A stretch of 63,618 nt of DNA, the filler included, from Folioceros fuciformis (taxonomy: Eukaryota), in NCBI GenBank assembly GCA_049999805.1. It is 5 parts of 5 records of this genome, joined end to end, with 100 filler letters (N's around TTAATTAATTAA, not from the genome) between each part and the next. Parts side by side here need not be neighbours in the genome. Positions count along the whole stretch, not along the records: positions 21,707 to 49,569 come from JBNGIO010005638.1; 4 more parts are not named here. One strand, given 5' to 3'. Under the pieces are notes generated by a model. It searched no databases, was not told where the DNA came from, and saw nothing but the letters and a program-made list of their open reading frames with translations. The number at the start of each line of letters is the position of its first letter. Position 1 is the first letter of the stretch. The position numbers and the translations under genes were made by a program. Below are positions 11,891 through 63,618 of the stretch, piece after piece.

Positions 11891-14800
11891 TCAGGAAGCC
11901 ACCGCAGACGAAGCTAACGCGTACCTGTCATCATCGTTCGACCTTGAGGCACTAGCCATCTGCCTCTCCACGCCTCGTACATTATATTGCTCATGCACCC
12001 TTATCCTATTATCTTGCCACCACTGCTCAGCTTGCCGTTCACTGAACCTCTTCCTACTGCACAATCCACAAGCCTTTCATCAGTATCCACACCACAGGAT
12101 AACGCTGTATGCGTACGTTCTCCCAGAAGCAGGGCGGACACACGGACAATCGGCCTACTTGTATCAACCATAACTCAGATCTTTAAAATCAGATTGATAG
12201 AGCTCACAGGGAAACGGCGGATGTACCTGAACCTGACTCGCTTCAAGTCCTTCCCACCACCTGGTAAGGCAGTCAAAGTAATATATACTCCGGCCTCTAC
12301 TTGCTCAACCCACTCAGTCCCCTGATCATGCCCATTATCAGATGCGCCTGCACTACTATGCCTCCCTTCTTCAGTTCTCGAGCTGTCGGGTCCGTTGGCA
12401 TCTATTTCAACAGCCCTCGCCGCCTTTGGGAAAACAGTCCTGCTTTGTACAAAGATAGCTCCTTCACCCATTGCCCGAGGGCTGCTCACACCATTGGCAT
12501 CTCCATCTCGTATGCTTGAGACTGCAAATACTGGAGGCTGCATATACTTCCTTGAATTCCCATGTGAACCTTCTAGATCTACAGCACCCATAGAATCGAG
12601 AACCGCTGGTGGATGGAGGCCATTTGGTGGGTCATGCCGACTGACTGCTCCAACTGGCCTTCCTTGCTGGTATGCTACCGGTGGCAGTCTCTCAGCCATA
12701 TCCTTCAACTGATAAAGGGTCAAAAACTAGTGAGTCGTCTTCCCGTTAAAAAAAAACACTATTAATGCAGGGGTAACTCAAAAGCACATTGAAAACCAGC
12801 CATCCGTCACAAACCTGGGCAGTAAGGGACTTGATTACTTCTTTCGCAGCTCTGCACTTGGCAGCCTCTTCTGCAGCTGCAGTCTGTGCTTCCTTCGTCT
12901 TCTGATGGGCTGCTTGCAATTCGATCTCTTGACTTTGGCATTTACTTGTGAGTTGTTCAACCTGATAGGGTACATCAACAACCAGGGTACTACCATCTAC
13001 CGATCATTTGCGTGTCAAGTAGGCATCTTACAGACACAAGACACTTCGAACACAGATCACAAGGTGGTAGACAGTCAATAAGGAGTACACCAATCACAAA
13101 AACATGTCAACGTCAATGAACAAGAGCAAGAGCGTACCTGCTTCAACAACCTCGCCACCTCCTCTGTTAAAAACTCATTGCTTCGCTTCATTTCATCCAC
13201 GGCAGCTTTCGGGGCAGTAAGACCAGATCCTGTCGGTGTTGGGGTGGTTGACCGAGGAGGACTGGGCCGCCTAGACATTGGGGAGTGGGACCTGGAAGCC
13301 ATATCAGCCGAGGGCACTGGAGGCAATGCTGGAAGCTGAGGTAATGGAGGCACATAGGATGGATTGAAGGAAGTCGGGGGCATCACTGAGACCCAACTTG
13401 GTACAGCATTGGGAACAGGAGACACTCGCCTCGAGGAATCAGGTTTCTTACTTCGTTTTGTGGCAGCCTTTCCTTCCATGTGCTTCACCTGTTCACTTGG
13501 CAGAAGTTTTGGAGAAGGCACTTGTGGCTTAGGCACCTTCGGATCAACCTTGTCTTGCCTATCTTTACCGTCTGGACGCCTTGCCACATTAATCTTTTGC
13601 TTTCCTGAAACAGATTGGGGTCCTGCTTGACTGTCAGCCACTTTCTTAAGCTTTGAGTAACATGCATCACAGACACGGTATGGCCGATTGGGATTTGGGG
13701 CCAGTGAGGCTCTGTGCGCCTTTTTTGCACTGCAAGAATGGCAGAACCCCAAACCACAGTTGTAGCAGTTGTGTCGTTTCCTGGTGAAAGTGAACGGATG
13801 CTTACAACCCGAACAAACTGACTGGTCTGCACTTGACACCCATCTGTGCAGACAAATGGCAGCCGTGAAACTCGAACCACATGCTATTGTCTTCACTTGC
13901 TTGTCCTTCAGTGCCTCCACCAAGGTCGGTACGTTTTTGTCATTAGTGTCTCCATGGCCAAGCCTACCATTTGCACCTTTTCCCCAAGTGTACACCTCAG
14001 TCCTTTGAGTCAATACAGCAACATGGTGAGAACCACATGCAATTTCTTCGACAAAAGACTCCCATAGCTTTCCTCCAACAAGACCTGGTAGCTTTCCATC
14101 TGCCTGGGGGTCTCCCAGCTGTCCATAGGAAGTACCTCCCATTGTGAACACCTGCCCTAAGGTGGTCAAGGCTACAGTCAGACTCGCTCCACAGGCCACC
14201 TGCCGGAAGTTATGATCAACAACCGCAGCCACACAGGTTGGAACAAGCTTCTGCTCCTTATCACCATGACCAAGACGACCTTTGTCACCGTCCCCCCATG
14301 TGAAAAGCTTACCAGAGGCACTTGTACTCCCACTGCTGCTAACCATTACTTCTACAACTGCAGCTGTATGCCACACCCCGCAAGCAGCTCTAACCGTTTT
14401 CAGACCTTTCAGAGATTCCACCTCCCTTGGGGAATGAGCGCTCTTTGTGTCTCCGTGGCCTAAAACTCCAAACGTTCCATCGCCAAAAGTGAACAGTTGA
14501 CCAGCTGAAGTGACAAGAGCAGTATGCCATGGGCCACAAGCTATGGATGAGACCCTTATTCCCTCTAGAGGTCCACCTACCTTCTTTGGTACCCAGTGGC
14601 CAGCTAAACCTCCATGGCCCAAAAGCCCAAAATTGTGTGTACCATCACCCCAGGTGTACAGGTCCCCTGAAAGTGTCACAGCAGAAGTGTGATACTCACC
14701 ACAGGCAACAAATTCGATGTTGATAGAAGACAAGGCCTCCACAAGCTGAGGCTGAGACACATCTTTATCAACCCCATGACCCAGTCGTCCACCTGATTCC

Positions 14801-16650
14801 TCGCCCCAACAGAAAACCTCTCCCTGTTTGGACACCAGAGCTGCATGTCGGCCCCCACATGCAATGTGATGTACATCAAGTACCGCCGTTGAGTCTAAGG
14901 GTTTTGGGAAAAGTGCATCCATCTTGGCACCAACTGCGTCGCCAGATCCAGCTCGAAATGGACCACCACCCAGAAAACCGTCGCCAATACCTTCACCCCA
15001 CATGAAGACGTCACCTAGAGCATCGTTTTCATCATGACCTGAACCCTGGCTTGAAGAGCTTACTTGGCTGGACATACTCATTCTAAAAGCTTCCATCGAA
15101 CCACCTCGCATTGGGTTAGTCACAATATCTGACCCGACATCAGAACCTGCAGAGTGGAGCGATCCTCCAGCCGAGCTGGAGTCCAAAAATGTCCTTGAAT
15201 CACCAGCCCAGACTGATGAAAAACCCTTGTCCACTATGGGTAACACTCGAGGAGGACTCTCAAATGGACTCAAGGTTTTGAAGCCTTCACTAGAATCCTG
15301 TAATTATAAATCAAAAAGGCATCATGAATATTACTACCATCATGTCAAGCCATATAAATAATCCCAATAACTGTGCCTGAAAATTGAAGACCGTACTAAC
15401 ATGGATGACAACAGAGACACAAACCTGTGGGAGGCTGTCGGTACTGCCAAACGGGGAACCAAGCGGAGAACTTTTCCTTGTGCGGTTAACTGGACTGTGG
15501 GAATCGAGGCTCAAAACGCCATCACCTCTCGAGTCAACCTTCTTGCGTGACTGGGCTCCAGCAACCAGAGCCTTGAGTCCAACAAACCATACCTCTGCTT
15601 CATCCTTGTCCTTGCAGATCTGGAGATAGTGGAGGGGCTTGAGTGCAAGAACTATCCCACAACCATCACAGCAGAAGAAAACTTGAAACAGGTTTCAGTG
15701 TGCCCACGGGAAATGGCAGGGCGGTACCAAATCAAGAGATCGTTCGTCGTTCTGATAGATTAGAGAAAACGACTGATACTCTTTCTCTGGCCGTGGATAT
15801 CGCTGAAATATCAGCTGCAGGGTGGTGTAGACGACATGAACAAATAGAAAAAAAAAATCAGAAACCATCAGAGAGCGCACGCACAAGGCAACTATGAAGC
15901 AGATATGAAAATTAGGTTCTCACAGTTCGCTGGCCAGGAACAATTCTCGAGACAGAGTTCAACTTCAAGACTTTCTCTTCCTTTCCAGAATACCATATCA
16001 AAGATGTTTCATCCTGTGTCAGGCATGCCAAGAAGCTTAGCGTTGTTTCTGTGCTAGTGACAGGGATGAAGACACACGGAAATGCTTCAGGCCACTCACA
16101 TTCGACAGCCTAAAAGGACAGAACTTCGGCTTGCCCCTGCGTCCGTATTTCAGTAGCTGTGCACCCTTCTTCAACGCAGTGATTGCCTTCACAACAGTTA
16201 ATTCCAAATATTAACAACGTGTGAGTTTACCAACTGACACCCGCTCATCCTAAAGAGGGACGTCAAATGAGCTACAGTCTCTTCCGTAGAGCAAGAACAC
16301 CTCCTTGCACGCAAAATGCACTAGAGATGTCTGCATCAAGCAGATAGACGCTACTCGTCAGTTGTAGATCAAGAGCGCGAAGCTCGCTGCAAAATGCACA
16401 TATCCACCTGCTTCACTAGTGAGCAGCAGCTACTTCCAAATGACAATCAAGGAGAAGTTCTTCGTGTGAGTTGAAACTAAGCGTATGGGAGGGAAATGAG
16501 CCACACACCAAGCGTACCAGGACAGGACAAACTATTAACTGTTTCGGCACCAAAATACCAGATCCAGAACTAGCAGGTAAACATCCGACATATGACATAT
16601 ACCTGTTCAATGTCACGCTCAGCAGGTCCATTTCGTGCGAACTCTGCCAT
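11891..16650 (-). CDS. RLD: PRAF/RLD family protein (PH, RCC1 repeats, FYVE finger, coiled coil, BRX domain)
   Basis: PH exons ([47 protein letters not shown]). Large exon with RCC1 repeats and FYVE finger ([18 protein letters not shown]). BRX domain [34 protein letters not shown]. The stop is approximate; an intron-containing 5' UTR probably extends beyond 17.3 kb. Confidence 0.93.
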
Positions 16651-21606: not shown

Positions 21607-21706
21607 NNNNNNNNNNNNNNNNNNNNNNNNNNNNNNNNNNNNNNNNNNNNTTAATTAATTAANNNNNNNNNNNNNNNNNNNNNNNNNNNNNNNNNNNNNN
21701 NNNNNN
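21607..21706. other. Artificial contig spacer (44N-TTAATTAATTAA-44N)
   Basis: Exact 100-bp unit with a six-frame stop linker, present four times in the window. Confidence 0.97.
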
Positions 21707-22346: not shown

Positions 22347-23217
22347 CAACTCTTTCGTGTCGTCTCCTCCTCTCCGCTCCCCGACTTCCTCGCTCAGCTC
22401 CAATTGAAATTATAGTTGAGATCGGAGTGGAAGCCGCGATCGGAGGTGGAGGTGGAGGTGACTCCCATCTCCACACACAGCGCCCTGGAGTGGAACGCTG
22501 ATGAAAAGGAGGCAGCACTCAGCAGACAGCCGGCACCAGATGGCGCGCGCTCATTCCACCCACGGGCCCTTCCGACGCGGCAGGTTGGTGGCAATCCACA
22601 CTTTCCAACAGTCATTCCGCGGACGAGCTATTCACGCTGGCGGTGGGAGGGGAAGGAAATTGCGGACAGGCTGGTTGTAGACCGGCTGTGCTTCTCACTG
22701 GCGGCGTCTCAATCGGCCCGGCCCCGACCGGCCCGTCGAACAACAACTCTCGACGCACCCGCCGAGCAAATGTCCACGGCTCGGGAAACGGCGGCGACTG
22801 CTGAAACAACTTTTCTTTTTCTTTCTAATAAAAAAAGCTGATGGAGCTCAAGCCCCTAGGAGAGTCCACTTTTATGCCTGCGAATTGTCGCTTCTTATTC
22901 CCTACCAATGTAAGGTCCCAACTACGGAGGGTCGACTGGACTTAGCTATCCGTTACGGTTTGCGCTTCACTTCTCCGGCTGCGGCTCCGGCTCCGGCTGG
23001 GCTGGATTGAACATTGACCAGAGAACTGGAACCAAGTCCATTCCACACTTCATTGTCACACGGTTTTGTCTACGATAGTTACGTACAGTACATGGATGTA
23101 CAGTATACAGTGTACCTAACTCCGGAGTTTTGTCCTTTTGCGTACATGTACATATGTACATCCAGCCTTATTCTGGTTACCAAGTGGAATCTTGCGCGTC
23201 ATTCATGCCCTGAGACC

Positions 23218-23781
23218 ATGGCGGGTATGCAACGTGCGCTTTACGATAATGTGGAGATATGTCCCATTTGCCATGAGGATTTGGACTGTGCTTTATGGGC
23301 AAGAATTGGAGATTGCTCTCACGCCTTTCATCTAAGGTGCCTAGTGAGGTGGTATGTTGCCGAAGGATCGGAGCATGCGTATTATCTAATTTGTCCAGCT
23401 TGTAGAATAGCGGCAACAGCAACAAACCCTTGTGGAGGAGATCATGATGTGCCATTTGCGAGGTCTAGGGTAGGGCTTGCAAAACTAACACGGAGCCCTC
23501 ACGCAGGAAGGCATAAGCAGGAGGAGGAGGTTCATGCACATACGCACATGCAAGTGGGAGAGGAGGAAGAAAACAAAATGGGAGAGGAGGAAAAAAACAA
23601 AGTGCATGAGAAATCTGCGAAGGAGGATGAGGCTTGTGCCGCAGTTGCCACTCCTCTGTCACACATGTTTGTGAGAGTGTCGGATTTTGTGAATTTTCAC
23701 AGGGACGCCGCTCCCGGGGGTGATCTTGAACACCACGGTGATGGTGGCAAGCGAGATCAGCGTGAGGAGAGTAGTGCGTAG
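23218..23781 (+). CDS. Intronless RING-H2 zinc finger protein
   Basis: CPICHEDL..CSHAFHLRCLVRW..CPACR followed by an acidic tail. Confidence 0.7.
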   Translation: MAGMQRALYDNVEICPICHEDLDCALWARIGDCSHAFHLRCLVRWYVAEGSEHAYYLICPACRIAATATNPCGGDHDVPFARSRVGLAKLTRSPHAGRHKQEEEVHAHTHMQVGEEEENKMGEEEKNKVHEKSAKEDEACAAVATPLSHMFVRVSDFVNFHRDAAPGGDLEHHGDGGKRDQREESSA

Positions 23782-23865: not shown

Positions 23866-24444
23866 ATGGCGAGGCCGCGAGAGCGGGAGGCGCTTGTGAG
23901 GAAGGTTTTCGGGAGGTTTGGCGAGTGCCTGCTGTGCCGCGAGGTGTTGGCTGCCAAGCGGTGGACGAGGTTGCGGGAATGCGGCCATGCATTCCACGTT
24001 CAATGCGCGGTGACATGGTTCGTGCGGCGGAAGAAAGGGAAGGAGCGGGCGCGGTGTCCATACTGCCGGAGCCCGGCTGGCGGACGCGAAGAATTGCGTG
24101 ACCAGGGCGGTGACATGGAAGTGGAAGAAGACGATGTCTGGAGAGAGGCAGAGGCAACTTCCTCTCATGACTGCAGGAAGAGCCTCACCTTCCGCCATGA
24201 TAGGAGCATGCAAGGGAATGTGGAGACATTCGTTGCGGTAGAAACGGCCATGGCGAGCGTGAATCAGGTAGTTACCATCGCCGGCGCGGACAGAGCTGTG
24301 CTGCGAATCTACCATGAGCCAACGGCCACATCGGAGACTGAGCGGCCGGTGCCTACAAATCAGGAGGCTTCTTCGCCCTCGAGCCACCACCACTTGTCAC
24401 CTCCACCGCAAAGCCCTAGCGCTCACTCGGACTCCCTCGCTTGA
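23866..24444 (+). CDS. Second intronless RING-H2 zinc finger protein
   Basis: CLLCREVL..CGHAFHVQCAVTW..CPYCR; first in-frame ATG at 23866. Confidence 0.7.
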   Translation: MARPREREALVRKVFGRFGECLLCREVLAAKRWTRLRECGHAFHVQCAVTWFVRRKKGKERARCPYCRSPAGGREELRDQGGDMEVEEDDVWREAEATSSHDCRKSLTFRHDRSMQGNVETFVAVETAMASVNQVVTIAGADRAVLRIYHEPTATSETERPVPTNQEASSPSSHHHLSPPPQSPSAHSDSLA

Positions 24445-32085: not shown

Positions 32086-32303
32086 GCGGCAAATTTGAAG
32101 TTCGAACTGACCCGCGCAAAATGGGCGGGCTGTTGTGAGACACCCAAGGATTGAGTAATTAGAAGGCCCGTCCCGATCCGTATCCCAGGCGCGGCTTCCA
32201 CGTGGGATAGCCGAGCCTTTTGCGTGGTTCGGTTTTCTCCCAGCTGGACACCGAACCTGTACTCCACGTCACCGATCCCGTCTTGCCTTCCGGTTCTATA
32301 AAG
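32086..32303 (+). promoter_or_regulatory. S-phase histone promoter: E2F-like site, type I element, TATA box
   Basis: GCGGCAAATTTGAA at 32086 (TTTGCCGC on the minus strand). CCACGTCACCGATCCCG at 32264 is close to the plant histone type I element CCACGTCANCGATCCGCG. TATAAA at 32297. Confidence 0.7.
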
Positions 32304-32436
32304 CAGCTTCGCTTCCCCTTCCTTCTCCACTTCGAGTGTTTTCAGCTTACGCTTTCCCTGCTGCCTGTTTCCGCTGCTGTGCGCCGCCAGGTTTCCTTGT
32401 GCTCGCTCTGCCGTATCTGTTCGCGAGGGTTCTGTC

Positions 32437-32844
32437 ATGGCTCCCAAGTCTGATGAGCAGAAGGCCGGCAAGGGCAAGGCCGAGAAGAAGCCGATGAAGC
32501 CCAAGGGCGAGAAGAAGCCGGCCTCCATGCCGAAGGAGGGTTCCAAGAAGAAGAAGGTGAAGAAGAGCGTTGAGACGTACAAGATTTACATCTACAAGGT
32601 GCTCAAGCAGGTGCACCCCGATACTGGTATCTCTTCCAAGGCTATGGGGATTATGAACTCTTTCATCAACGACATCTTCGAGAAGCTGGCCCAGGAGTCT
32701 GCGAAGCTTGCACGCTACAACAGGAAGCCTACTATAACTTCACGGGAGATACAGACTGCTGTGAGGCTGATTCTGCCTGGAGAGCTGGCCAAGCATGCTG
32801 TGTCTGAGGGAACGAAGGCTGTCACCAAGTTCACAACTGCTTAG
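32437..32844 (+). CDS. H2B: Histone H2B, intronless
   Basis: [57 protein letters not shown]; complete 135-aa ORF. Confidence 0.99.
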
Positions 32845-32869
32845 GGCGCCCAAGCTCCAACCCTTTTCT

Positions 32870-32901
32870 GGTGTTTTTGAACACCACCACTTCAGAGGGA
32901 A
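32870..32901 (+). terminator. Putative histone 3' stem-loop with purine-rich downstream element
   Basis: GGTGTT-TTTG-AACACC (6-bp stem, 4-nt loop), then ACCAC, then AGAGGGAA; starts 25 nt after the H2B stop. Confidence 0.7.
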
Positions 32902-33426
32902 CTTTGACGCTTCATACTGACTATTGAACATGCTGTGCTGTTTGCAACTTGTCCTTGGCTCACCTTCACCGCTCTGTGATATTCATTTCGTTCGTCCGCT
33001 CGCGGTAGGATTCATGTTCTTGGCGGGGTATAGGAACTTGTAGATTGCCGTCGCTTAAAGTCAGCTTCCCATCAGTCGTCTTAGGCGTCTCTGATCTCTG
33101 AGAGTGGGGATCGGTTGTAACAGGTTAGAACATGCAGGTAGGATAGGTTGTCACAGGTAAGCACTGAGCAGTCGCAAAGAAAGGATACTGTGTTGAACAC
33201 ATCTTTCCAACTTTCAAGTGAAATTTAAATTGGCTTCTAGTGTCTCAGTATGCACTGGCCGCTGATTTTGTGCTATTTATGAATCATGTTGAAAGCTTTA
33301 TATGTAGATAGAAGGCATAAATGTACATAGACTTATAGAAGCCGTGCAACAGCAAACCCTGACTACATGGGTGCAATTGTGACCCTTTTTTCATTCGAAG
33401 TCCTGTTACCGCTCCAATTTTTCAAA

Positions 33427-35932
33427 TCACTCTCTGATACTGTCATATCGTTTGCCCCTGGATCCTGGGCAAAGCAACAGCTCTTTATCACACTCTGAAC
33501 GCATACGGTTCGGTAGATAGGAGTAGCACATCAAACAGGTGACATCACAGCGCTCTGTTCTTACCAGAGAAGTATTCAGTGATGTAGATAGCCAGTGTTG
33601 CTTCTTTGCAAATTGCTTTGCCCATGTGTCAACGATGACGAGGGCGCATGCATCTCCCCATATATTAACAGATGTTCGGAACATGCCAAGGAACCAATCG
33701 ACTGCATACAGAATTGAGACATCGGGGATGTACTGGCTTAAGCCAAGAGCCTGCACAACAAACTGGTTACACACTGCAGGAGCTACGAAGGACAATCAGG
33801 AATTTCATCATACAAAACCATCACATAACATTTATGTTCCTGAAACCGAACTGACTCTGGCAATGGACCTGTAGAACTGTGATCATTGAGACGAGGGCCC
33901 CATTGGGAATGGAAGCTGCGCCGATGGCCGCAAGGGTGGATGTGAGCGCTACGACGAGCACATTTCCAACAGACAGCTCATAGCCATGTGCCTAGCCACA
34001 CCGTCCATGTTGTCAATTGTTGAGTTCCAGAACTTTCTGCCAATGATGGCATCACAACGGGAATACTTTCTTACCTGCAAGATGAAGATGACTGACACGG
34101 CTTCATACAATGCGGCTCCATCCCGGTTGATATTTGTGCCCAGAGGAATAACAAACTTGACAATACTTGGTTCACAACCATGATCCTCTCCACATTGCAT
34201 GGTCACAGGCATTGTCGCTGCGCTGGAAGAAGTTCCCAATCCCATAACAAGGGCAGGCATAAATGACCTGCGATGCATAAAAAAAACAATTCTCCGAAAT
34301 TAGCATGCGCAGTTGGAAAACCGTTGGATTCAACTGATCACCATCCTGGACTTGAGCAGAGGCTCACCGGAAGACTTTGATGCAGTTGCTCCGGGATAAC
34401 AGGAACAGCGTGATTGGTAATATCACAGTCGAATGCAATAGAAACCCAACCATGACAGTGCTCACATATAGCCCCAAGGCCCTCAACAAAAGGAGGACGC
34501 TGCATGCCTTCAGTATCGTACTTGCTATGAGAGATGCCACACCAACAGGCGTAGCTGCGATTACTACAAATATCTGCAAACGGAGTCTGAAGTGTAACTT
34601 GGCCGCAAGCCCTTCTACTTCAAGTTGATCACAGAATTCTGGCAATCCTTGAGACGTTGATACTCACAATCCTAAGAATGACGTCATTGCAGAGTTCAAT
34701 CAGCTGTATTAAGGGCTCCGCGCGTTCCCCTGAAAGTGCCAGCAAATTTGTTGGATGATAGGATAAGAGGAAGATATCGAGCAAGAATGGCAGAGAGACA
34801 GAGCACCTTCCTACGCACATCATTCCAGTCCATCTAGAAAGGTTATGCTCTTACCAATTGTATTCAGTGTGAAGGCAAAGAGTATGGAAAAGAAAATCAC
34901 GCCGAGATAGTTCGTCTCCGCAGCAGCTGCAACAATGTTGGTGGGAATGAGATCCCGACCGATGTTCAGCAGTGATTCTACTGTCGATCCATCTGCAGCT
35001 GAGCTTTCCCTGCAGAGTGAACAGCTGCGTGAGAGAAAAGGGTGCAGAGATCAAACACCCTGCTCACATGGCATGCTTTGACAGCTTGGTGATCAGTTTG
35101 GGAGGGCTCTTACGACACCGACTGGACACCTGAATTCTTCTGAGAACAGGCGGCAACACCATCACCACTGAAGGGCTCACTTCTTCCCGGCCTGATAATG
35201 TAAACCAAACCGATGCCAAGGCCCACTGCCAGCAACATGGAAAGCAGATAGTACAGAAGTGACCATCTGGTTATCCGCCCTGTTCTGCCAAAAATAGAGC
35301 CAAGATTTCGGGCAGAGTCAGCAAAACGTGGACCGAAACTAGAAAAATCTCCTCCTCCACGGGAGGCCTCATGACCTTGTCCGAAAGCTTCGAAATGGAC
35401 AGTACCCGCTAGAAGAATGCCTCAAATTTAGCACGCCAGTCATGAGAGCGAAGACGATGAGAGGCAGCACCAGCTCCTGCAGAGCTCGGATCAGCAGCTC
35501 CCCAGGGTAACCTGCACAAACGGCCAGGGATGGGTACCGGATCCAGCCCTGCCAACGGGCGATCGGGACCAAGAAACGCGGTCTGGCATATGGTGTGGCC
35601 TACCGATGAGCTCCACTGCGCGCTCGGAGAGGCTGGCATTGGAGAGAGCAGCTCCAAGGGCAATTCCCAATCCCACCCCTCCCAAAGTCCACCAGATCAG
35701 CTTGTCCATCCGGAACCATCGTTTCTGAATCCGTCGGAGCAGATGCGTCTCGTGGCCCGCTGTGGAGAGGAGAGGAGAGGTGTGAGGTTGGGCCAAATTA
35801 GATGCAGCTATGTCAGTAAAAGGACAGGCCCGAGTCCACCAATTGAGAAGCTGAGCAGAGCAGAGGCTGGGCTGAGGTGACCTGACCTTCCCCCAGAGGT
35901 GAGTAGACGATCTCACTGGCCTGATCGCCCAT
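33427..35932 (-). CDS. Dicarboxylate/amino acid:cation symporter (SLC1/DAACS, EAAT/GltP family), multi-exon
   Basis: GYPGELLIRALQELVLPLIV, ATPVGVASLIA, LGTSSSAATMPVTMQC, FVIPLGTNINRDGAALYEAV, LAAIGAASIP and AVDWFLGMFRTSVNIWGDA are SLC1 signature motifs. Inferred start MGDQASEIVYSPLGE; 3' end approximate. Confidence 0.9.
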
Positions 35933-49569: not shown

Positions 49570-49669
49570 NNNNNNNNNNNNNNNNNNNNNNNNNNNNNNN
49601 NNNNNNNNNNNNNTTAATTAATTAANNNNNNNNNNNNNNNNNNNNNNNNNNNNNNNNNNNNNNNNNNNN
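49570..49669. other. Artificial contig spacer
   Basis: 44N-TTAATTAATTAA-44N. Confidence 0.97.
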
Positions 49670-51972: not shown

Positions 51973-54900
51973 TGTTGGGGAATTAAACCCGACATGAGTT
52001 TACTTAAGATAGGTTACTTGAGGGTTAACCTACCTAACTCAAAGGACACATACAATTTTTGTCTACAAGGACTCTGTATTCATTTTTATATATACACATA
52101 TTATATTTGTATCTAAGTCTTGCTTCTAATCAAGGTACTCTAGCTAATTACAAGACATAATTGTCATGGTATCAGAGCCCTCGATGCTCTAAGTCTTCCA
52201 CTATATTGATTAACTGATGTGTCTAGTCTAGGGCCTCAATAATCATAGATGATAGTCGCATCAGTTTCTGGTCCTTGTGCTTAAAATGCCTAGAAGAAGT
52301 GATAGGCGTAGAAATAGGCCTATTCCTACACCTCCTTGGGCTGCTAGGGCTGATTATATCCGAAGGTGACACAATAATCTGTTTATTGTGTCAGACGCTG
52401 ATGTTTGGATCCAGGACAGAGAGAGGCAGAATGGAGTGAGAGAATGTCTTGTCTCTCCTCATTCTTACTACAGTTGTGTGTTCGCCAGACGTCTTGAGAT
52501 TGAGAGGTCTAACCTTCTGCAATCAAGGATTAAAAGAGACAATTGGTTAGTAGGAGTTGACGAAGACGTGGCGTTATTTGATCAATTGGATTCTACAAGA
52601 CGTCCTTTCGCAGATAAGAGATTCTCCTCCAAATTGGACAGCATTGAAGCCCTGTTGACTCGATTGCTTGTTCAGACTCAGCCAAAGCTTGAACAGATTT
52701 CTTTCGATGTGGAATCTCTCTAATAAGAAGTCAGTCAAGTTGCCAATGAGATTGCTAGTCTAAAGGTTTTTCGGGAATCTTCTTCAATCTCTGCTGTTCA
52801 ACCAGTTGCAGCCCTGTATCTGAAATCACTCGTTCCCATGAGGGAGGGAGCAAGTGTTGGGGATCAATAGGGTGCAACGACTTCCAAGATCTGAAGCGGT
52901 GCGCTACAACATTTGGGATCCTAGCACGCTGACAAGGGAGCACTCGACAGGCACTTTCCATAGTTGTACTTGTTGAATGATGCATCCACGTGTCATCCGT
53001 CTGCTGTTTTCCTCTTCGTTGCTGGAGTCATGTCTCTTGCGTTCTTGGTCCCCTGCCACTGACATGTGAACCGTTATTCAGTTATACGTTCACATGACAT
53101 AGTTTTAGGTTTTTAGGGTTTTTCCTTTTAAGAACTAAAACTAGAGTTCACGAAACGCTATTTCAATGTACCGTTTCGTACCTTTTTTGTCTCATCAGGC
53201 TATGTTGTAGTTGTGCCTGTTGGGTATGTAGCTGATGTTGTAGGTTGACTCAGATAGTGATTTAGATTTGGACCAATTCTCTTGGTTGTATTCTGATCCA
53301 CCACTTCCTGTCAATCCAATACTTGTTCAGCCCATCATGGCATCCATTCCAGTAGCTCCTCAATCTACATTTGTCGGTCCCTCTATTCAGGTGAATTTAA
53401 GGAGAAAGACAAATTTGACTGGAAACCCATCAGGTTTGAGAGCTGGAAGGCGAGAATGAAAGCTAAGCTAGATGCCAGAGACGTGTGGGAGTATGTGGAC
53501 GGATCCATACCCAATCCATTGAAGGTACCTAGCACAACAATACCACAACCAACAGCTGATGAAATAGCAAAGTGGAAGAAAGGCAACAAAATCGCTTTTG
53601 CTATCCTATTATCTGGACTAGATGAGTCAACGGTAACTGAAGTTGACACCTTGGAAATAGCTGAAGTTGTCTGGAAGTAGCTGTCTGATACTTACCAGGT
53701 TCAGAATGTTTGTACAATGATCAATGCTCGTAATAACTTCCATAGTCTTAGGTTGAAGGAGGGGGAACCAGTTGTGGCTCATATCACTAAGTTGAGGCAC
53801 CTACAGGCACAACTTGCCGCACTAGGTACCAAGATCACTGAGGTGGAGATGACTGCTCAACTGTTGGCCAGCCTGCCTTTGTCCTATCAACCATTCATAT
53901 CCAGTCAAAATACCACCTTGCGTGACACATACAAGGTAGCAACAAGTGGTCAACCATCAACATTGAATCTGAAAGAAATCATAGGGGCTCTCTTGCAAGA
54001 AGAACAAAGCCACCTACATACCCATTCAGGTTCTCGCCTGCGAGGGGAGAAGGTCATGTTTGCCTCCAAAGGAAAAGGACAGTGGAGAGGAAAAGACAAG
54101 GGCAAGAAGACACCCACATCTTCTACCTCTTCTTCAAACTTCCCGACCAAACGCAATGGTAACTGTAATTGGTGTCAGATCCCCGATCACTGGGAATGTG
54201 ACTGTAGGAAAAAGAAGGCGGGTGAGCCTAAGAAGGATTCAAGATCTGAAGCTCACATTATATCAAAGGAGAACAAGACCTCTGGATCTCAACATAAGAG
54301 TGGGAGTACTATTCTTACAGTCTGCCTGACTTCTTATAAGGATCAGTCTTCCTCCTGGTTTGTGGACTCTGGCGCAACGGCTCATGTCTGCAATAACCAA
54401 GAACTCTTCTCCACCCTACAGAAATAGCAATCACCTCAACTAGTGTATGTTGGTGATGCTCGTGGTGTTAAGGTAAAAGGAACTGGTTTAGTAAACATAC
54501 CTCTCTTTGGTGGAACAGTTCTGCATTTGGATGATGTACTCTTTGTCCCTGAGATGAGTAAGAATCTTCTATCCATCAAAGCTCTTGTTCAGAGTTAGAA
54601 ATATGGCTTTAAGTTTGAGAACAGGAAGTGCTATACCTACCAGCAGTCATTTCCAGAAGTTTCTATTGCTAAGGCTGTTCTAATCAATGATTTGTATCAG
54701 TTAGTAATAATTCAAAAATCCAAAGTAAGGGCTCTATTGGCTGCTTACAATGTACAGGCTAACCTCTAGCATGCACGATTAGGACATGTGAACAGGTCTA
54801 AGTTAGATCTTATGTCTTCGTCTAACTGTTACAGAGAACAACTTCCTCCTTGCTTTAAGCATCTTGAGGCATGTCGCTCCTGCATATTATCCAAGCAAAA

Positions 54901-57900
54901 AGAGTTACCATTCAAGAATAAAATAGCAACAAGGGTCAAATCTGTCTAGGAGCTAGTTCATGCTGACATAGGTGGTAAACTCCCTGTGAAGTCTCTTGGC
55001 GGCGCTGAATACTATCTCACGTTACACTTGGACTTTTCCTCTTAAATTGAAGAGTGACGTGTTTGATACCATTGCTTCCTGGATTCCAATGGTACAACGT
55101 CAAACAGGAAAATTAGTCAAGTGCTTCCGTACAGATAATGGAGGTGAATTTACAGGTTACAGGTTTGATCACCTTTTCCAGCAGTTCGGCATCATTGGCA
55201 GCTATCTATTCCCTACACGTAGCAGCAGAATGGTGTTGCCGAGCATAAGAACCAAACATTAATGGGAATGACACGAAGCGTGCTCTTGTGGTCATCCTTA
55301 CCTAAAAGCTTCTGGGCTGAAGCTGTTGTTGCTGCCACATATATTTTGAATCGTGTGCTTACAGCAACTCTCCCAGGACAGACGCCTTATGAAGCCTTTT
55401 GGGGTAGGAAGCCCAACCTCTTGCATCTTCGAGTATTCGGGTCTCCAGCGTTTGCTTATATCCCTGAACCCAAGAGGGGGAAATTAGATGCTGGGGCTAA
55501 AGCCCTTCTATTCTTGGGTTACTCTGAAGAGTCCAAAGCTTACAAATTGTTCGATCCTCAAACCTTAAAAATTACCCTCTCGCAGTGTTACCTTCATAGA
55601 ATTGTCATCCCCTAAGCCGAATGTCAATCCTCATCTTGTAGACCCTTTTGTGGATTCCGATCAGTCTGTACATGCTCCAACCTACACCTATCCAATGTCA
55701 GATGGTGAGCCTCCTTCACAATAGGAATATGAAGATGCAGATACTGCTGAACAGGCTATTAGAGATGACTTTGAAACTCCACCTAGAATTCAACAAGCTA
55801 CTTTACCTGTTGACCCTGATCGAGACGATGCCGATGTGGATTTTCATGGATAGGACACTAATGATGACCTGTCATTACATGAGTCGGAGGATTCCAATCA
55901 TGCTACCTCAAATATTGGGTTGTTGGTTGGTGACACAACAAAATGAAGGTGAGGTACAGCCAGAGCCTTCAAGATATCCCACTCGTGAAAGATGAACAAG
56001 GGAAAACTGGCTCAACCCACCCTATCAAACTGAAGACTTTCGCAAGCCTGCAGCTCATGTGTTTGATCTTCATGTCCCTGAAGTTCGACCAGATCCTCAG
56101 TCCTATTCAGAGGCTCTAAACGGACCTGATGGAGAACACTGGCGCAAGTCAATAGATGATGAATATAACAACTTGATTAAAAATAACACTTGGGAACTAG
56201 TTGATCTACCACTGGGCAGAAAACCTACCTGCTGCAAGTGGGTTTTTAAAACTAAGCTGACTTCTGATGGTACTATAGCACGTTACAAATCCAGGCTAGT
56301 AGCTAGGGGTTTCAGCCAGATTCCTGGAATTGATTTTGGTGATACTTTTTCCCCGGTTGTAAAACCACCCTCAGGTCGCATCTTACTTGCTATGGCCGTA
56401 GAGTTCAACTTAGAAGTCCACCAGATGGACGTGCGCACTGCCTTCCTACATTGTTTATGGAACAACCAAAGGGTTTTGTTAGCAAGAAGTGGCCTAAGAA
56501 GGTTTGTAACTCCTTAAAACTTTATATGGGCTAAAGCAGAGCCCAAGAGCTTGGTATAAGCGTATTGTGAAGTACCTTCAGACATTGGGTTTTCTTCAAA
56601 GTCCAGCAGACACAAATGTGTTCTACCTTGCCATTGGTGCTCTCTTTGTTATCTTGGCTCTATATGTCGATGATTGTGTCTTGCTCAGCAATGATATAGG
56701 GCAGTTAAATAAAGTAAAGGACATGCTTAGACAGGAGTTTGAAATGACAGACCAAGGTGAACTTCAATTCTGCCTTGGTATTCAGATTCTACGTAATCGA
56801 CAAGCAGGGCAGATAATCTTATATCAAACAAAGTACTTGAAGGAGATCCTCAAGCATTTCAACCTTGATGACGCTCCATCCATCGGCAGTTGGGGAGAAG
56901 CTCACACGAAATATGTCACCTCAGCTGGCTGCAAACATTGAGGACATGGCTTCTGTGCCATATGCTGAAGCTGTGGGGTGTTTGATTTTCCTGGCCAACT
57001 ATACACGCCCCGCTATTAGTTATGCTGTAAGCCAGGCCTCTCAATTTCTCAAGCAGCTAGGAAGGATTCATTGGGCTGCTGTAAAGAGAATTTACAGATA
57101 CCTAAAGGGGACTATTACTTATGGTTTGCAGTATACCTCAAGTGGGAGTAAGAGTTTGGAACTTATCTCATACGCCGATGCTAATTGGGCGTCTGATGCA
57201 AACACTCATCGTAGCTTGTCGGCATACTGCTTTCTCCTAGCATCAGGCTCCGTAAGTTGGAGCTGTAAAAAAACAAACCTCCCTGGCCCTATCCTCAACC
57301 AAAGCTAAATACAAGGCCCTTACGGATGCCTGCAAAGAAGCTGAATGGCAAAGACAGTTCCTTGAGTCAGTGCAACAATTGCAAATCGGACCAACTAAGC
57401 TGCACTGCTACAATATGGGTGCTATAGCTCTCGTTTCCAATCCCAGGTTTCGTGCGAGGACAAAGCATATAGAGCTTTACCATCACTATGTCCGGGATGT
57501 GGCAGAACGAGGAGCTATCAAAGTTCAGTACATCAGTACTCACTTGAACACTGCCGATATTTTCACAAAAGGGCTCCCAAAGGCCAAACATTTCCATCAC
57601 ATGGCTGCATTAGGTCTAAAAGAGTTCAGCTATCCTAAGAAAATAACCTAACTATTCTATGTAGAGCCATGGCTTTTTCCTGGGGAGTTCATTGCTGTCC
57701 TATCCGCACAGGAGATATGCATCTTAGTGGCCCTTACCACCGTTCTCTTTTGAAAGTGCTCCAAGTTTGTAGCCCCCCTGTGTCAATAGGATCGACTCCA
57801 GTCTATGTGCAAGTGTAGGAGAGGAGAGGAGAGGAGAGAAGAGAGGGTGGTATTGGTGGTCATAACCAAAAACAATACACATCACCACTGTCTTACTATG

Positions 57901-62173: not shown

Positions 62174-63618
62174 TTGATAGATTCAAGGCTAGGTTGGTGG
62201 TGAAGGGATACTCCCAAGAGGAGGGCATTGACTACAATGAGACATTTGCACCAGTTGCCAAGTTTGCATCCATCAAAACCTTACTTGCAGTGGGAGCAAT
62301 GTATGATTTGGAGATTCATCAAATGGATGTGAAAACAGCATTTCTAAATGGGGACTTGGAGGAAGACATTTACATGGAGCAACCCCAAGGCTATGTAGTT
62401 ATCGGCAAGGAGAACATGGTTTGCAAATTGAAGAAAGCTCTTTATGGATTGAAGCAGGCTCCAAGAGCTTGGTATCAAAAGATTAACTCATATCTTTTGG
62501 AGCAGGGTTTTCGGCAATGCACATCAGATGAGAGCATCTACATTTTTGAGGTCTCCCAAAGTAAGGTAATCTTAGCCATATATGTGGATGATCTTATCTT
62601 GTTGAGTCCATCTTTAAGCAGTATTGATAAAGTGAAGGAGATGTTGTCAAAGAAGTTTGAAATGAAGGACTTAGGGAACATCAACTATTGTCTTGGAATT
62701 GAAGTGCGGAGAGATAGGGCAGCACGTATCATCAGGCTTGGTCAGCAAGGGTATGTTGAGGGATTATTGGAGCGATTTGGAATGATGGATTGCAAGCCTA
62801 TTGGGACCCCTCAAGACTTAGGTGTGAAGTTGTGTAAGGTTGACTACTCATCAAATGATGGGGAGGAGCATGAGATGAGTAACATCCCATATAGGGCAGC
62901 AGTTGGAAGTTTGATGTATGCCATGGTAGGAACACGTCCAGACATTGCAAAGGCAGTGGGAGTAGTGAGCCAATTTATGCAAAGCCCTGGAAAGCAACAT
63001 TGGATTGCGGTGAAAAGGATCATGCGATACTTGAGAGGTACAAGTGATATGTGGTTGGAATTCTCGGGTGGAATCAAATGCCATAATATTATTGGGTATT
63101 GTGACTCCGATTGGGGAAGTGATCTTGATGATAGAAGATCAACTACAGGATATACTTTTATTTTAGGAGGAGGTGCCATTACTTGGAATAGTAAGAAGCA
63201 ACCCACGGTGGCCATATCGACAGTTGAAGCTGAGTACATGGCATCCACACAAGCCACCAAGGAGGCCGTATGGTTGAGAAAGCTCATGGAGGAGATTGGT
63301 TATGAACAATTACATCCGACCACTCTTAGGAGCGATAGTCAAGGAAGTATGGCCTTGATCAAGAATCCAGTGCATCATGCAAGGACAAAGCATATTGACA
63401 TTCAACATCACTTTGTACGTGAGAAGGTGAAGTTATTGGAGGTTACCTTTGAATATTGCAACACTGAGGAAATGGCTGCAGATTTCTTAACCAAGGCAGT
63501 GAGTAAGTTCAAGTTTGAGAAATGCAGGGGACTACTTGGACTAAAGCAAACTCAACTGCGCTGAGTGGGAGTGTTAAGCATGATTAACGTTGATATTAAT
63601 TAGTGCTAATCCAGCTTA
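62174..63618 (+). mobile_element. Ty1/copia element D: uninterrupted RT-RNase H ORF, PPT and start of the 3' LTR
   Basis: Stop-free frame of at least 456 aa (HQMDVKTAFLNG, YVDD, GYCDSDW, ARTKHIDIQHHF, ADFLTK) ending at 63564; PPT GAGTGGGAG 63563-63571; LTR begins TGTTAAG at 63572. Confidence 0.93.

Follow-up and report, generated by a model that had tools for sequence, protein, structure and literature searches.

Does the mRNA of an intronless histone H2B gene in Folioceros fuciformis, a seed-free land plant, end at a stem-loop, or does it receive a poly(A) tail? The replication-dependent histone genes of angiosperms give polyadenylated mRNAs and carry type I Hex/Oct promoter elements. The gene considered here lies in a stretch of 63,618 bases from assembly GCA_049999805.1 (hereafter the window, meaning the whole stretch of DNA that was analysed). 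A hairpin, GGTGTT-TTTG-AACACC-ACCAC, stands 25 nucleotides (nt) past its stop codon, and 8 nt past the stem follows a purine-rich block, AGAGGGAA, at 32894-32901. Both had been reported in a preliminary description of this DNA, and all coordinates agree with the sequence. Judged by the sequence, a genuine signal for histone mRNA 3' ends occupies 32870-32901, composed of a green-lineage-type stem-loop and a purine-rich downstream element; “green-lineage type” is our label for stem-loops that follow H2A, H2B and H4 genes on metagenome contigs. By analogy with other lineages, poly(A)-independent 3' end formation directed by the stem-loop is probably the main route for this replication-type H2B.

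The H2B gene and its 3' hairpin

The window holds 57 open reading frames (ORFs) of at least 100 amino acids (aa), only one of which encodes a histone. This single, intronless ORF (stop codon TAG, 32842-32844) contains a core histone domain (Pfam PF00125, E 2.9e-22), and plant H2Bs were its top full-length relatives in a protein search. Identity was 94% to an H2B from a transcriptome, 87% to the H2B of Physcomitrium patens and 81-85% to those of Sphagnum and Ceratodon. An exact look-up in a protein collection gave no match for this ORF or for the RCC1/FYVE ORF described below. Of the sequencing runs listed, none is on record as RNA; one, for which RNA is a guess, contained 0.73 of the words sampled from 32330-33330, and we draw no conclusion from it.

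A strict filter, requiring six base pairs in the stem, four nt in the loop, GG..CC at the base and ACC as the flank, was passed over both strands (127,236 positions) and returned one match, at 32870, behind the only histone gene of the window. The six pairs of the hairpin are all Watson-Crick pairs and are contained in the minimum-free-energy (MFE) fold of a 66-nt stretch. Stem positions 1 and 2 are G-C, and U fills positions 1-3 of the UUUG loop; stem G-C and loop U positions are named as diagnostic in passages of a recent preprint (10.64898/2026.10.14.759114), whose introduction also gives a distance of approximately 25-60 nt between stop codon and stem, a range that includes the distance seen here. 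The 3' flank is of the ACC(C)A type. These cis elements, and their position relative to the gene, are plain in the DNA (Table 1).

A stem-loop family behind histone genes

For comparison, we used 80 metagenome loci encoding H2B relatives and inspected what follows their stop codons. In 74 of the 80 the H2B C-terminus was identifiable, and 43 of these 74 carry, no more than 300 nt past the stop, a 6-bp hairpin of the form G...C with a 4-6-nt loop, then A followed by C or T. Exactly the stem of the window, GGTGTT...AACACC, is present in 17 of the 74 H2B 3' flanks. The 3' flanks thus yielded 43 hairpins per 20,976 nt, against 15 per 62,697 nt in the rest of the loci, upstream of those flanks; some of these 15 may be palindromic stem-loops that belong to neighbouring histone genes.

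Thirty-three distinct stem-loops behind H2B were aligned in register, with duplicates collapsed and the window left out (alignment A1). Two hairpins were dropped before alignment, one with an A/U-rich stem that has no GG..CC base (L005) and one with G-U pairs that lies 224 nt from the stop (L071); neither was recovered by the model described below. The two basal G-C pairs of A1 are invariant and the other four pairs covary, whilst the 100% pairing is by construction, as the hairpins were preselected to be perfect. Within the 3' flank, A is invariant at the first position and C is conserved in at least 90% at the third.

A covariance model built from A1 without the window (R1) was then run on the 63,618 bases, both strands, with filters off. 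It gave one significant match, 32860-32899 (+), with a score of 22.4 bits and an E-value of 1.3e-4 (R1 E-values are rough, the calibration having been shortened). The next matches were the same palindrome on the - strand, at 11.1 bits, and unrelated sites at no more than 10.7 bits, leaving a gap of 11.7 bits between the window hairpin and the background.

Run on the 80 loci, R1 produced 76 matches at E<=0.05, 30 of them outside the training set, and for each of these 30 the longest ORF ending within 350 nt upstream was taken. A recognisable H2A, H4 or H2B C-terminus preceded 23 of the 30 and a lysine-rich (H1) ORF one more. The remaining six were not recognised: three had apparent wrong-frame ORFs, two were over 240 nt away from the nearest ORF, and one was in L006, an angiosperm-like locus whose R1 match is probably false. 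Pfam assigned all eight of the neighbouring ORFs tested to histones (five H2A, PF16211; two H4-like histone folds; one linker histone). Taken from the ORFs that precede its matches, R1 is evidently a model of histone stem-loops, of a conserved family that follows H2A, H2B, H4 and H1 genes. The 24 untrained matches behind recognised histone genes scored 17-40.7 bits, so the 22.4 bits of the window are low but within range; the score falls at the low end because the 5' flank of the window is pyrimidine-rich and has no A-run. Membership was observed directly in this comparison, and the window hairpin is almost certainly a true member of the histone stem-loop family.

The closest relative, in L076, reads GGTGTT-TTTC-AACACC-ACCA, and loop position 4 is its sole difference from the 20-nt core of the window. 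A second relative, in L008 (1501-1988 of a metagenome contig), reads GGTGTC-CTTT-GACACC-ACCC and lies 29 nt past an H2B stop; relative to the window, its closing pair has changed from U-A to C-G, a compensatory change. The full-length H2B of L008 is 86% identical to Alnus H2B.3, ends in KFTSA and looks like a seed-plant-like or vascular-plant gene.

Some further observations concern these loci. No obvious purine block follows the stem-loop of L008, the source of which could be a gymnosperm or a fern. At 401-477 of L076, one microRNA-precursor model matches both strands, with 41.6 and 39.6 bits against a cut-off of 97, which suggests a long inverted repeat 5' of the H2B gene. Many alga-like histone stem-loops have loops of 5 or 6 nt (H2B 3' flanks of L010-L018, L022, L043-L046, L048-L050, L074 and L075; also L042, 669-709, - strand), and GGTGTT-CATTT-AACACC occurs in eight loci. 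The plant and protist scan in the above preprint used a fixed 6+4+6 window, a limit conceded in its Discussion (10.64898/2026.10.14.759114), and stem-loops with 5- or 6-nt loops would therefore escape it.

The purine-rich downstream element

The 45 nt past the stem were lined up in 32 loci. Purine content peaked at 75-81% at positions 11-14 past the stem, and the longest purine runs started mostly at positions 8-16, for example GAGGAAG at 8 (L047), GAGGAAAGA at 9 (L048), AAAGA at 10 (L011 and L018) and AGAGGAGAA at 14 (the animal-type L077). At the level of motifs, the block of the window, occupying positions 9-16, fits the purine-rich zone of the family.

Counter-evidence and competing explanations

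Several findings weigh against a working poly(A)-independent signal at this site. The stability of the 66-nt stretch is ordinary, with a z-score of -1.45 and 17 of 200 shuffles folding as well. The Rfam Histone3 model, proposed as a check in the preliminary description, went against the hairpin: no family reached its gathering score in a scan of the whole window, and a search of 401 nt with RF00032 (Histone3) gave 15.4 bits (E 0.26), where the cut-off is 34. Furthermore, pyrimidines dominate the 5' flank (CCCUUUUCU; aligned by cmscan as UUUCU), in contrast to the A-rich flank of the animal consensus (CCAAA in Rfam) and of most A1 loci, although L008, L053 and L059 in A1 likewise have no A-rich 5' flank. 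Precedents from the literature also belong here, and by them a stem-loop is no guarantee of a poly(A)-less mRNA. An H2B gene of P. patens makes both polyadenylated and stem-loop isoforms, Cycas panzhihuaensis keeps SLBP yet polyadenylates its histone mRNAs, and Selaginella is without SLBP (all according to passages of PMC13130582).

The Rfam result was calibrated by running RF00032 on 19 of the metagenome loci. Animal-type loci scored above the cut-off of 34 (L079, 41.1 bits; L061, 37.9; L077, 35.3), whereas all four other stem-loops scored, none of animal type, fell below it (L070, 29.8; L076, 28.9; L059, 21.2; L053, 18.4). As calibration loci with non-animal-type stems also score under 34, the cut-off divides animal-type stems from others, not true stem-loops from false ones, and it is uninformative for the stem type of the window. 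The cmscan alignment of the window matches at all core positions (GG...UUUU.A...CCACCA) and fails to match in the 5' flank, which is A-rich in the model, and in the stem sequence, where the model has that of animals. Passages of the Discussion in 10.64898/2026.10.14.759114 likewise attribute low sensitivity in plants to animal-trained models.

The low Rfam score and the unremarkable fold z-score are what could be expected of a hairpin that arose by chance in an ordinary 3' untranslated region. This explanation is scarcely credible: it is contradicted by the single strict-filter match in the window, by the R1 match and by the identity of the 12-nt stem in the H2B 3' flanks of other organisms.

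A weightier alternative accepts the stem-loop as real and conserved, and holds that H2B mRNA is mostly or partly read through and polyadenylated, with the stem-loop serving a fraction of transcripts or some tissues. The 5' flank contributes to SLBP binding in animals, and a flank with no A-run could weaken that binding. In the downstream DNA, UGUAA occurs at 33116, and the stretch 33195-33345 is richer in AT. Against this, neither AAUAAA nor AUUAAA occurs on the + strand within 650 nt past the H2B stop, where UGUAA and AAGAAA (33177) are near matches only. Because plant poly(A) signals are degenerate, the missing AAUAAA is itself weak evidence. The AT-richer stretch may belong to the 3' end of a convergent gene and not to an H2B poly(A) site; an exon of this gene, encoding an SDF-family (sodium:dicarboxylate symporter) transporter, lies at 33952-34278 (-), approximately 1.1 kb downstream of H2B. 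A perfect stem and a purine block also speak against read-through as the usual fate. The dual behaviour of the P. patens gene (LOC112291437), with similar genes in a fern and in Cycas debaoensis (PMC13130582, in part), gives this alternative a precedent, and we consider it unlikely but worth keeping in view.

The signal could also be a relic, inherited from the green lineage and now unused after loss or silencing of SLBP or U7. Passages of PMC13130582 describe independent losses of SLBP in Selaginella and angiosperms, and an SLBP that is kept but unexpressed in C. panzhihuaensis; passages of 10.64898/2026.10.14.759114 report that stem-loop-like hairpins persist in lineages with relaxed constraint. 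A palindrome of 16 nt that had fallen out of use should decay, however. Here all six stem pairs are intact, as are the uridines of the loop, the ACCA flank and the purine block, and the stem is identical to that of distant relatives. We therefore regard a relic as very improbable, and poly(A)-independent processing at the stem-loop remains our preferred explanation.

Comparison with known histone 3' ends

The metazoan signal (RF00032, with SLBP, U7 and CPSF73) resembles that of the window in its 6-bp stem, 4-nt loop, basal G-C pairs, loop U1 and U3, U-A closing pair, ACCA 3' flank, short distance past a core histone stop and purine-rich block downstream. It differs in the middle of the stem (GGCUCU/AGAGCC, compared to GGUGUU/AACACC in the window), in the 5' flank, which is U/C-rich in the window, and in the Rfam score, which for the window is below the cut-off. 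The purine block of the window starts 9 nt past the stem, compared to 12-15 nt in the animal-type L061, L062, L077 and L079. The hairpin had been described as an “animal/alga-type” stem-loop; the animal half of that label has to be dropped, as the stem is not the GGCUCU/AGAGCC of L077, while assignment to the green-lineage type stands.

Histone 3' stem-loops are known from Chlamydomonas and Volvox. The contigs that carry green-lineage-type stem-loops look alga-like from their short H2B tails and divergent H2A-H2B pairs, the latter being a green-algal arrangement according to passages of PMC8226298. The window shares with these loci the stem (17 of the 74), the ACCA flank and a purine-rich block. 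Many of them, in contrast, have loops of 5 or 6 nt, 5' flanks rich in A and 27-240 nt between stop and stem, where the window has a 4-nt loop, a pyrimidine flank and 25 nt, and its H2B stands alone instead of in a divergent H2A-H2B pair.

Among land plants, passages of PMC13130582 (Genome Biol, March 2026) report SLBP and poly(A)-less stem-loop histone mRNAs in P. patens, Adiantum capillus-veneris and C. debaoensis. The preprint 10.64898/2026.10.14.759114 (October 2026) describes, in the parts seen, stem-loops in bryophytes and gymnosperms, with the G-C pair in the stem and the U in the loop kept in the bryophytes, together with LSM10 and LSM11 homologues in land plants; by its own account, it confirms and extends earlier findings of Lopez and Samuelsson (2008), mosses being among the groups listed. 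Like the genes in these two studies, that of the window encodes a core histone of a land plant and carries a canonical 6+4+6 stem-loop near the stop, and L008 is of the same kind; unlike them, for which RNA-end data and SLBP calls are at hand, its signal is known from DNA alone. The statement in the preliminary description that stem-loop processing is usually considered lost in land plants is outdated in the light of PMC13130582. Retention of the stem-loop in seed-free plants is already in print and the window adds to it incrementally, as one more land-plant lineage that keeps the ancestral signal for poly(A)-independent histone mRNA 3' ends. The literature searched yielded no paper tying hornworts or liverworts to histone stem-loops and SLBP, and the lineage of the window may be a new data point.

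The angiosperm side gives the opposite picture at the 3' end. Of 23 loci with an H2B ending in KFTSS, 21 have no stem-loop behind H2B, and the two that do (L047 and L059) both encode short, alga-like N-terminal tails. At the promoter, the window does resemble angiosperm histone genes, with a Hex plus reverse-Oct-like block, an E2F-like site and a TATA box.

Two consequences follow for the detection and history of such signals. The Rfam Histone3 cut-off and pipelines restricted to 4-nt loops under-call stem-loops of this type, whereas a lineage-aware model separates them cleanly, and the plant of the window has the 12-nt stem GGUGUU/AACACC in the same form as alga-like contigs.

A model of H2B mRNA 3' end formation

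We infer the trans-acting steps, and the actual end of the RNA, from animals, green algae, moss, fern and cycad. Transcription would start from an S-phase-type promoter with its type I-like Hex/Oct element, E2F-like site and TATA box, and the nascent RNA would fold into the hairpin of 6 bp and 4 nt soon after the stop codon has been passed. SLBP would bind this hairpin by way of stem position 2, a G-C pair, and of the uridines in the loop and the flanks, whilst AGAGGGAA would pair with the 5' end of a U7-like small nuclear RNA (snRNA) held in an Sm/LSM10/LSM11 ring. Animal histone pre-mRNAs are cut 4-5 nt past the stem, and by this analogy a cleavage complex containing CPSF73 is predicted to cut at approximately 32889-32890. 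The mRNA would then end in the stem-loop, with no poly(A) tail, and its export, translation and decay would be tied to SLBP and DNA replication.

The preliminary description had proposed a retained stem-loop processing pathway. Its cis-element part is borne out by the R1 family membership, by G-C at stem position 2 together with U at loop positions 1 and 3, by the ACCA flank and by the purine block; the remainder of the pathway is the model just given. How much of the machinery survived is a separate matter. That the full U7 arm, and not SLBP alone, persisted into land plants, so that a U7-type small nuclear ribonucleoprotein would cleave beside AGAGGGAA, is a tentative suggestion that we hold to be rather doubtful. 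Were it true, the block would be a handle for a land-plant U7 snRNA, an RNA with an Sm site and a complementary 5' end; in any event, a purine block beside a stem-loop offers a starting point in that direction. The passages seen of PMC13130582 and of 10.64898/2026.10.14.759114 report no land-plant U7 RNA complementary to the downstream block.

Promoter and feature coordinates

E2F-like and type I S-phase elements had been noted upstream of H2B, and both were found again by motif match, with the E2F and Hex/Oct consensuses of the plant histone promoter literature. The Hex plus reverse-Oct-like block CCACGTCACCGATCC, at 32264-32278, occurs once in the window and in none of 100 shuffles. The pattern CCACGTCANCGATCC likewise has one match in the window, and none in 100 shuffles. 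Coordinates of the promoter, coding and 3' elements are collected in Table 1.

Table 1. Promoter, coding and 3' elements of the H2B gene, numbered along the window.
Feature	Position	Strand	Evidence or remarks
E2F-like TTTGCCGC in the H2B promoter	32086-32093	-	Regular expression TTTSSCGC; motif match only
Plant histone “type I”-like element	32264-32281	+	Hexamer ACGTCA 32266-32271, then reverse octamer-like GATCCCGT 32274-32281
TATA box, TATAAA, 140 nt 5' of ATG	32297-32302	+	Sequence, motif scan
Intronless histone H2B coding sequence, 135 aa, stop included	32437-32844	+	ORF call, Pfam PF00125, protein identities
Spacer from stop to stem, 25 nt	32845-32869	+	Sequence
Histone mRNA 3' stem-loop, GGUGUU/AACACC 6-bp stem, UUUG loop	32870-32885	+	MFE fold, strict filter, R1
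5' arm, GGTGTT	32870-32875	+	Sequence
Loop, TTTG	32876-32879	+	Sequence
3' arm, AACACC	32880-32885	+	Sequence
3' flank, ACCAC	32886-32890	+	Sequence; alignment A1
Purine-rich block AGAGGGAA, like a histone downstream element	32894-32901	+	Positions 9-16 after stem; TTC precedes

Other features of the window

A large exon of a PH/RCC1/FYVE (PRAF-type) protein was detected at 13078-15111 (-), as an ORF of 678 aa. Its best match was 80% identical, followed by proteins of Marchantia (71%), Riccia (70%), Ginkgo (69%) and angiosperms (approximately 67%); identity to the mosses Ceratodon and Sphagnum was 66-67% and to the lycophyte Diphasiastrum 66%. A tree of 26 rows (the window and 25 of the 120 matches listed), rooted at its midpoint only, placed the window and the 80% relative on a branch of their own with support of 100/100. 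This branch falls within a strongly supported group of non-seed plants, separate from the two liverworts, the mosses and the lycophyte. The tree makes a seed-free plant a reasonable source and a hornwort a guess, with a streptophyte alga as a remaining formal alternative.

Two adjacent ORFs at 23092-23781 and 23866-24444 (+) encode RING-H2 fingers (Pfam zf-RING_2 and zf-ANAPC11) and look like tandem duplicates. Runs of N at approximately 21651-21700 and 49570-49617 break up two ORFs, one rich in GC and one of low complexity, rich in serine and leucine. Pieces of Copia-type long terminal repeat (LTR) retrotransposons were found at 53717-57308 and 62299-63564 (+), with gag (PF14223), integrase-adjacent SH3-like (PF25597) and RVT_2 (PF07727) domains; in the first copy the pol frame is split over several ORFs.

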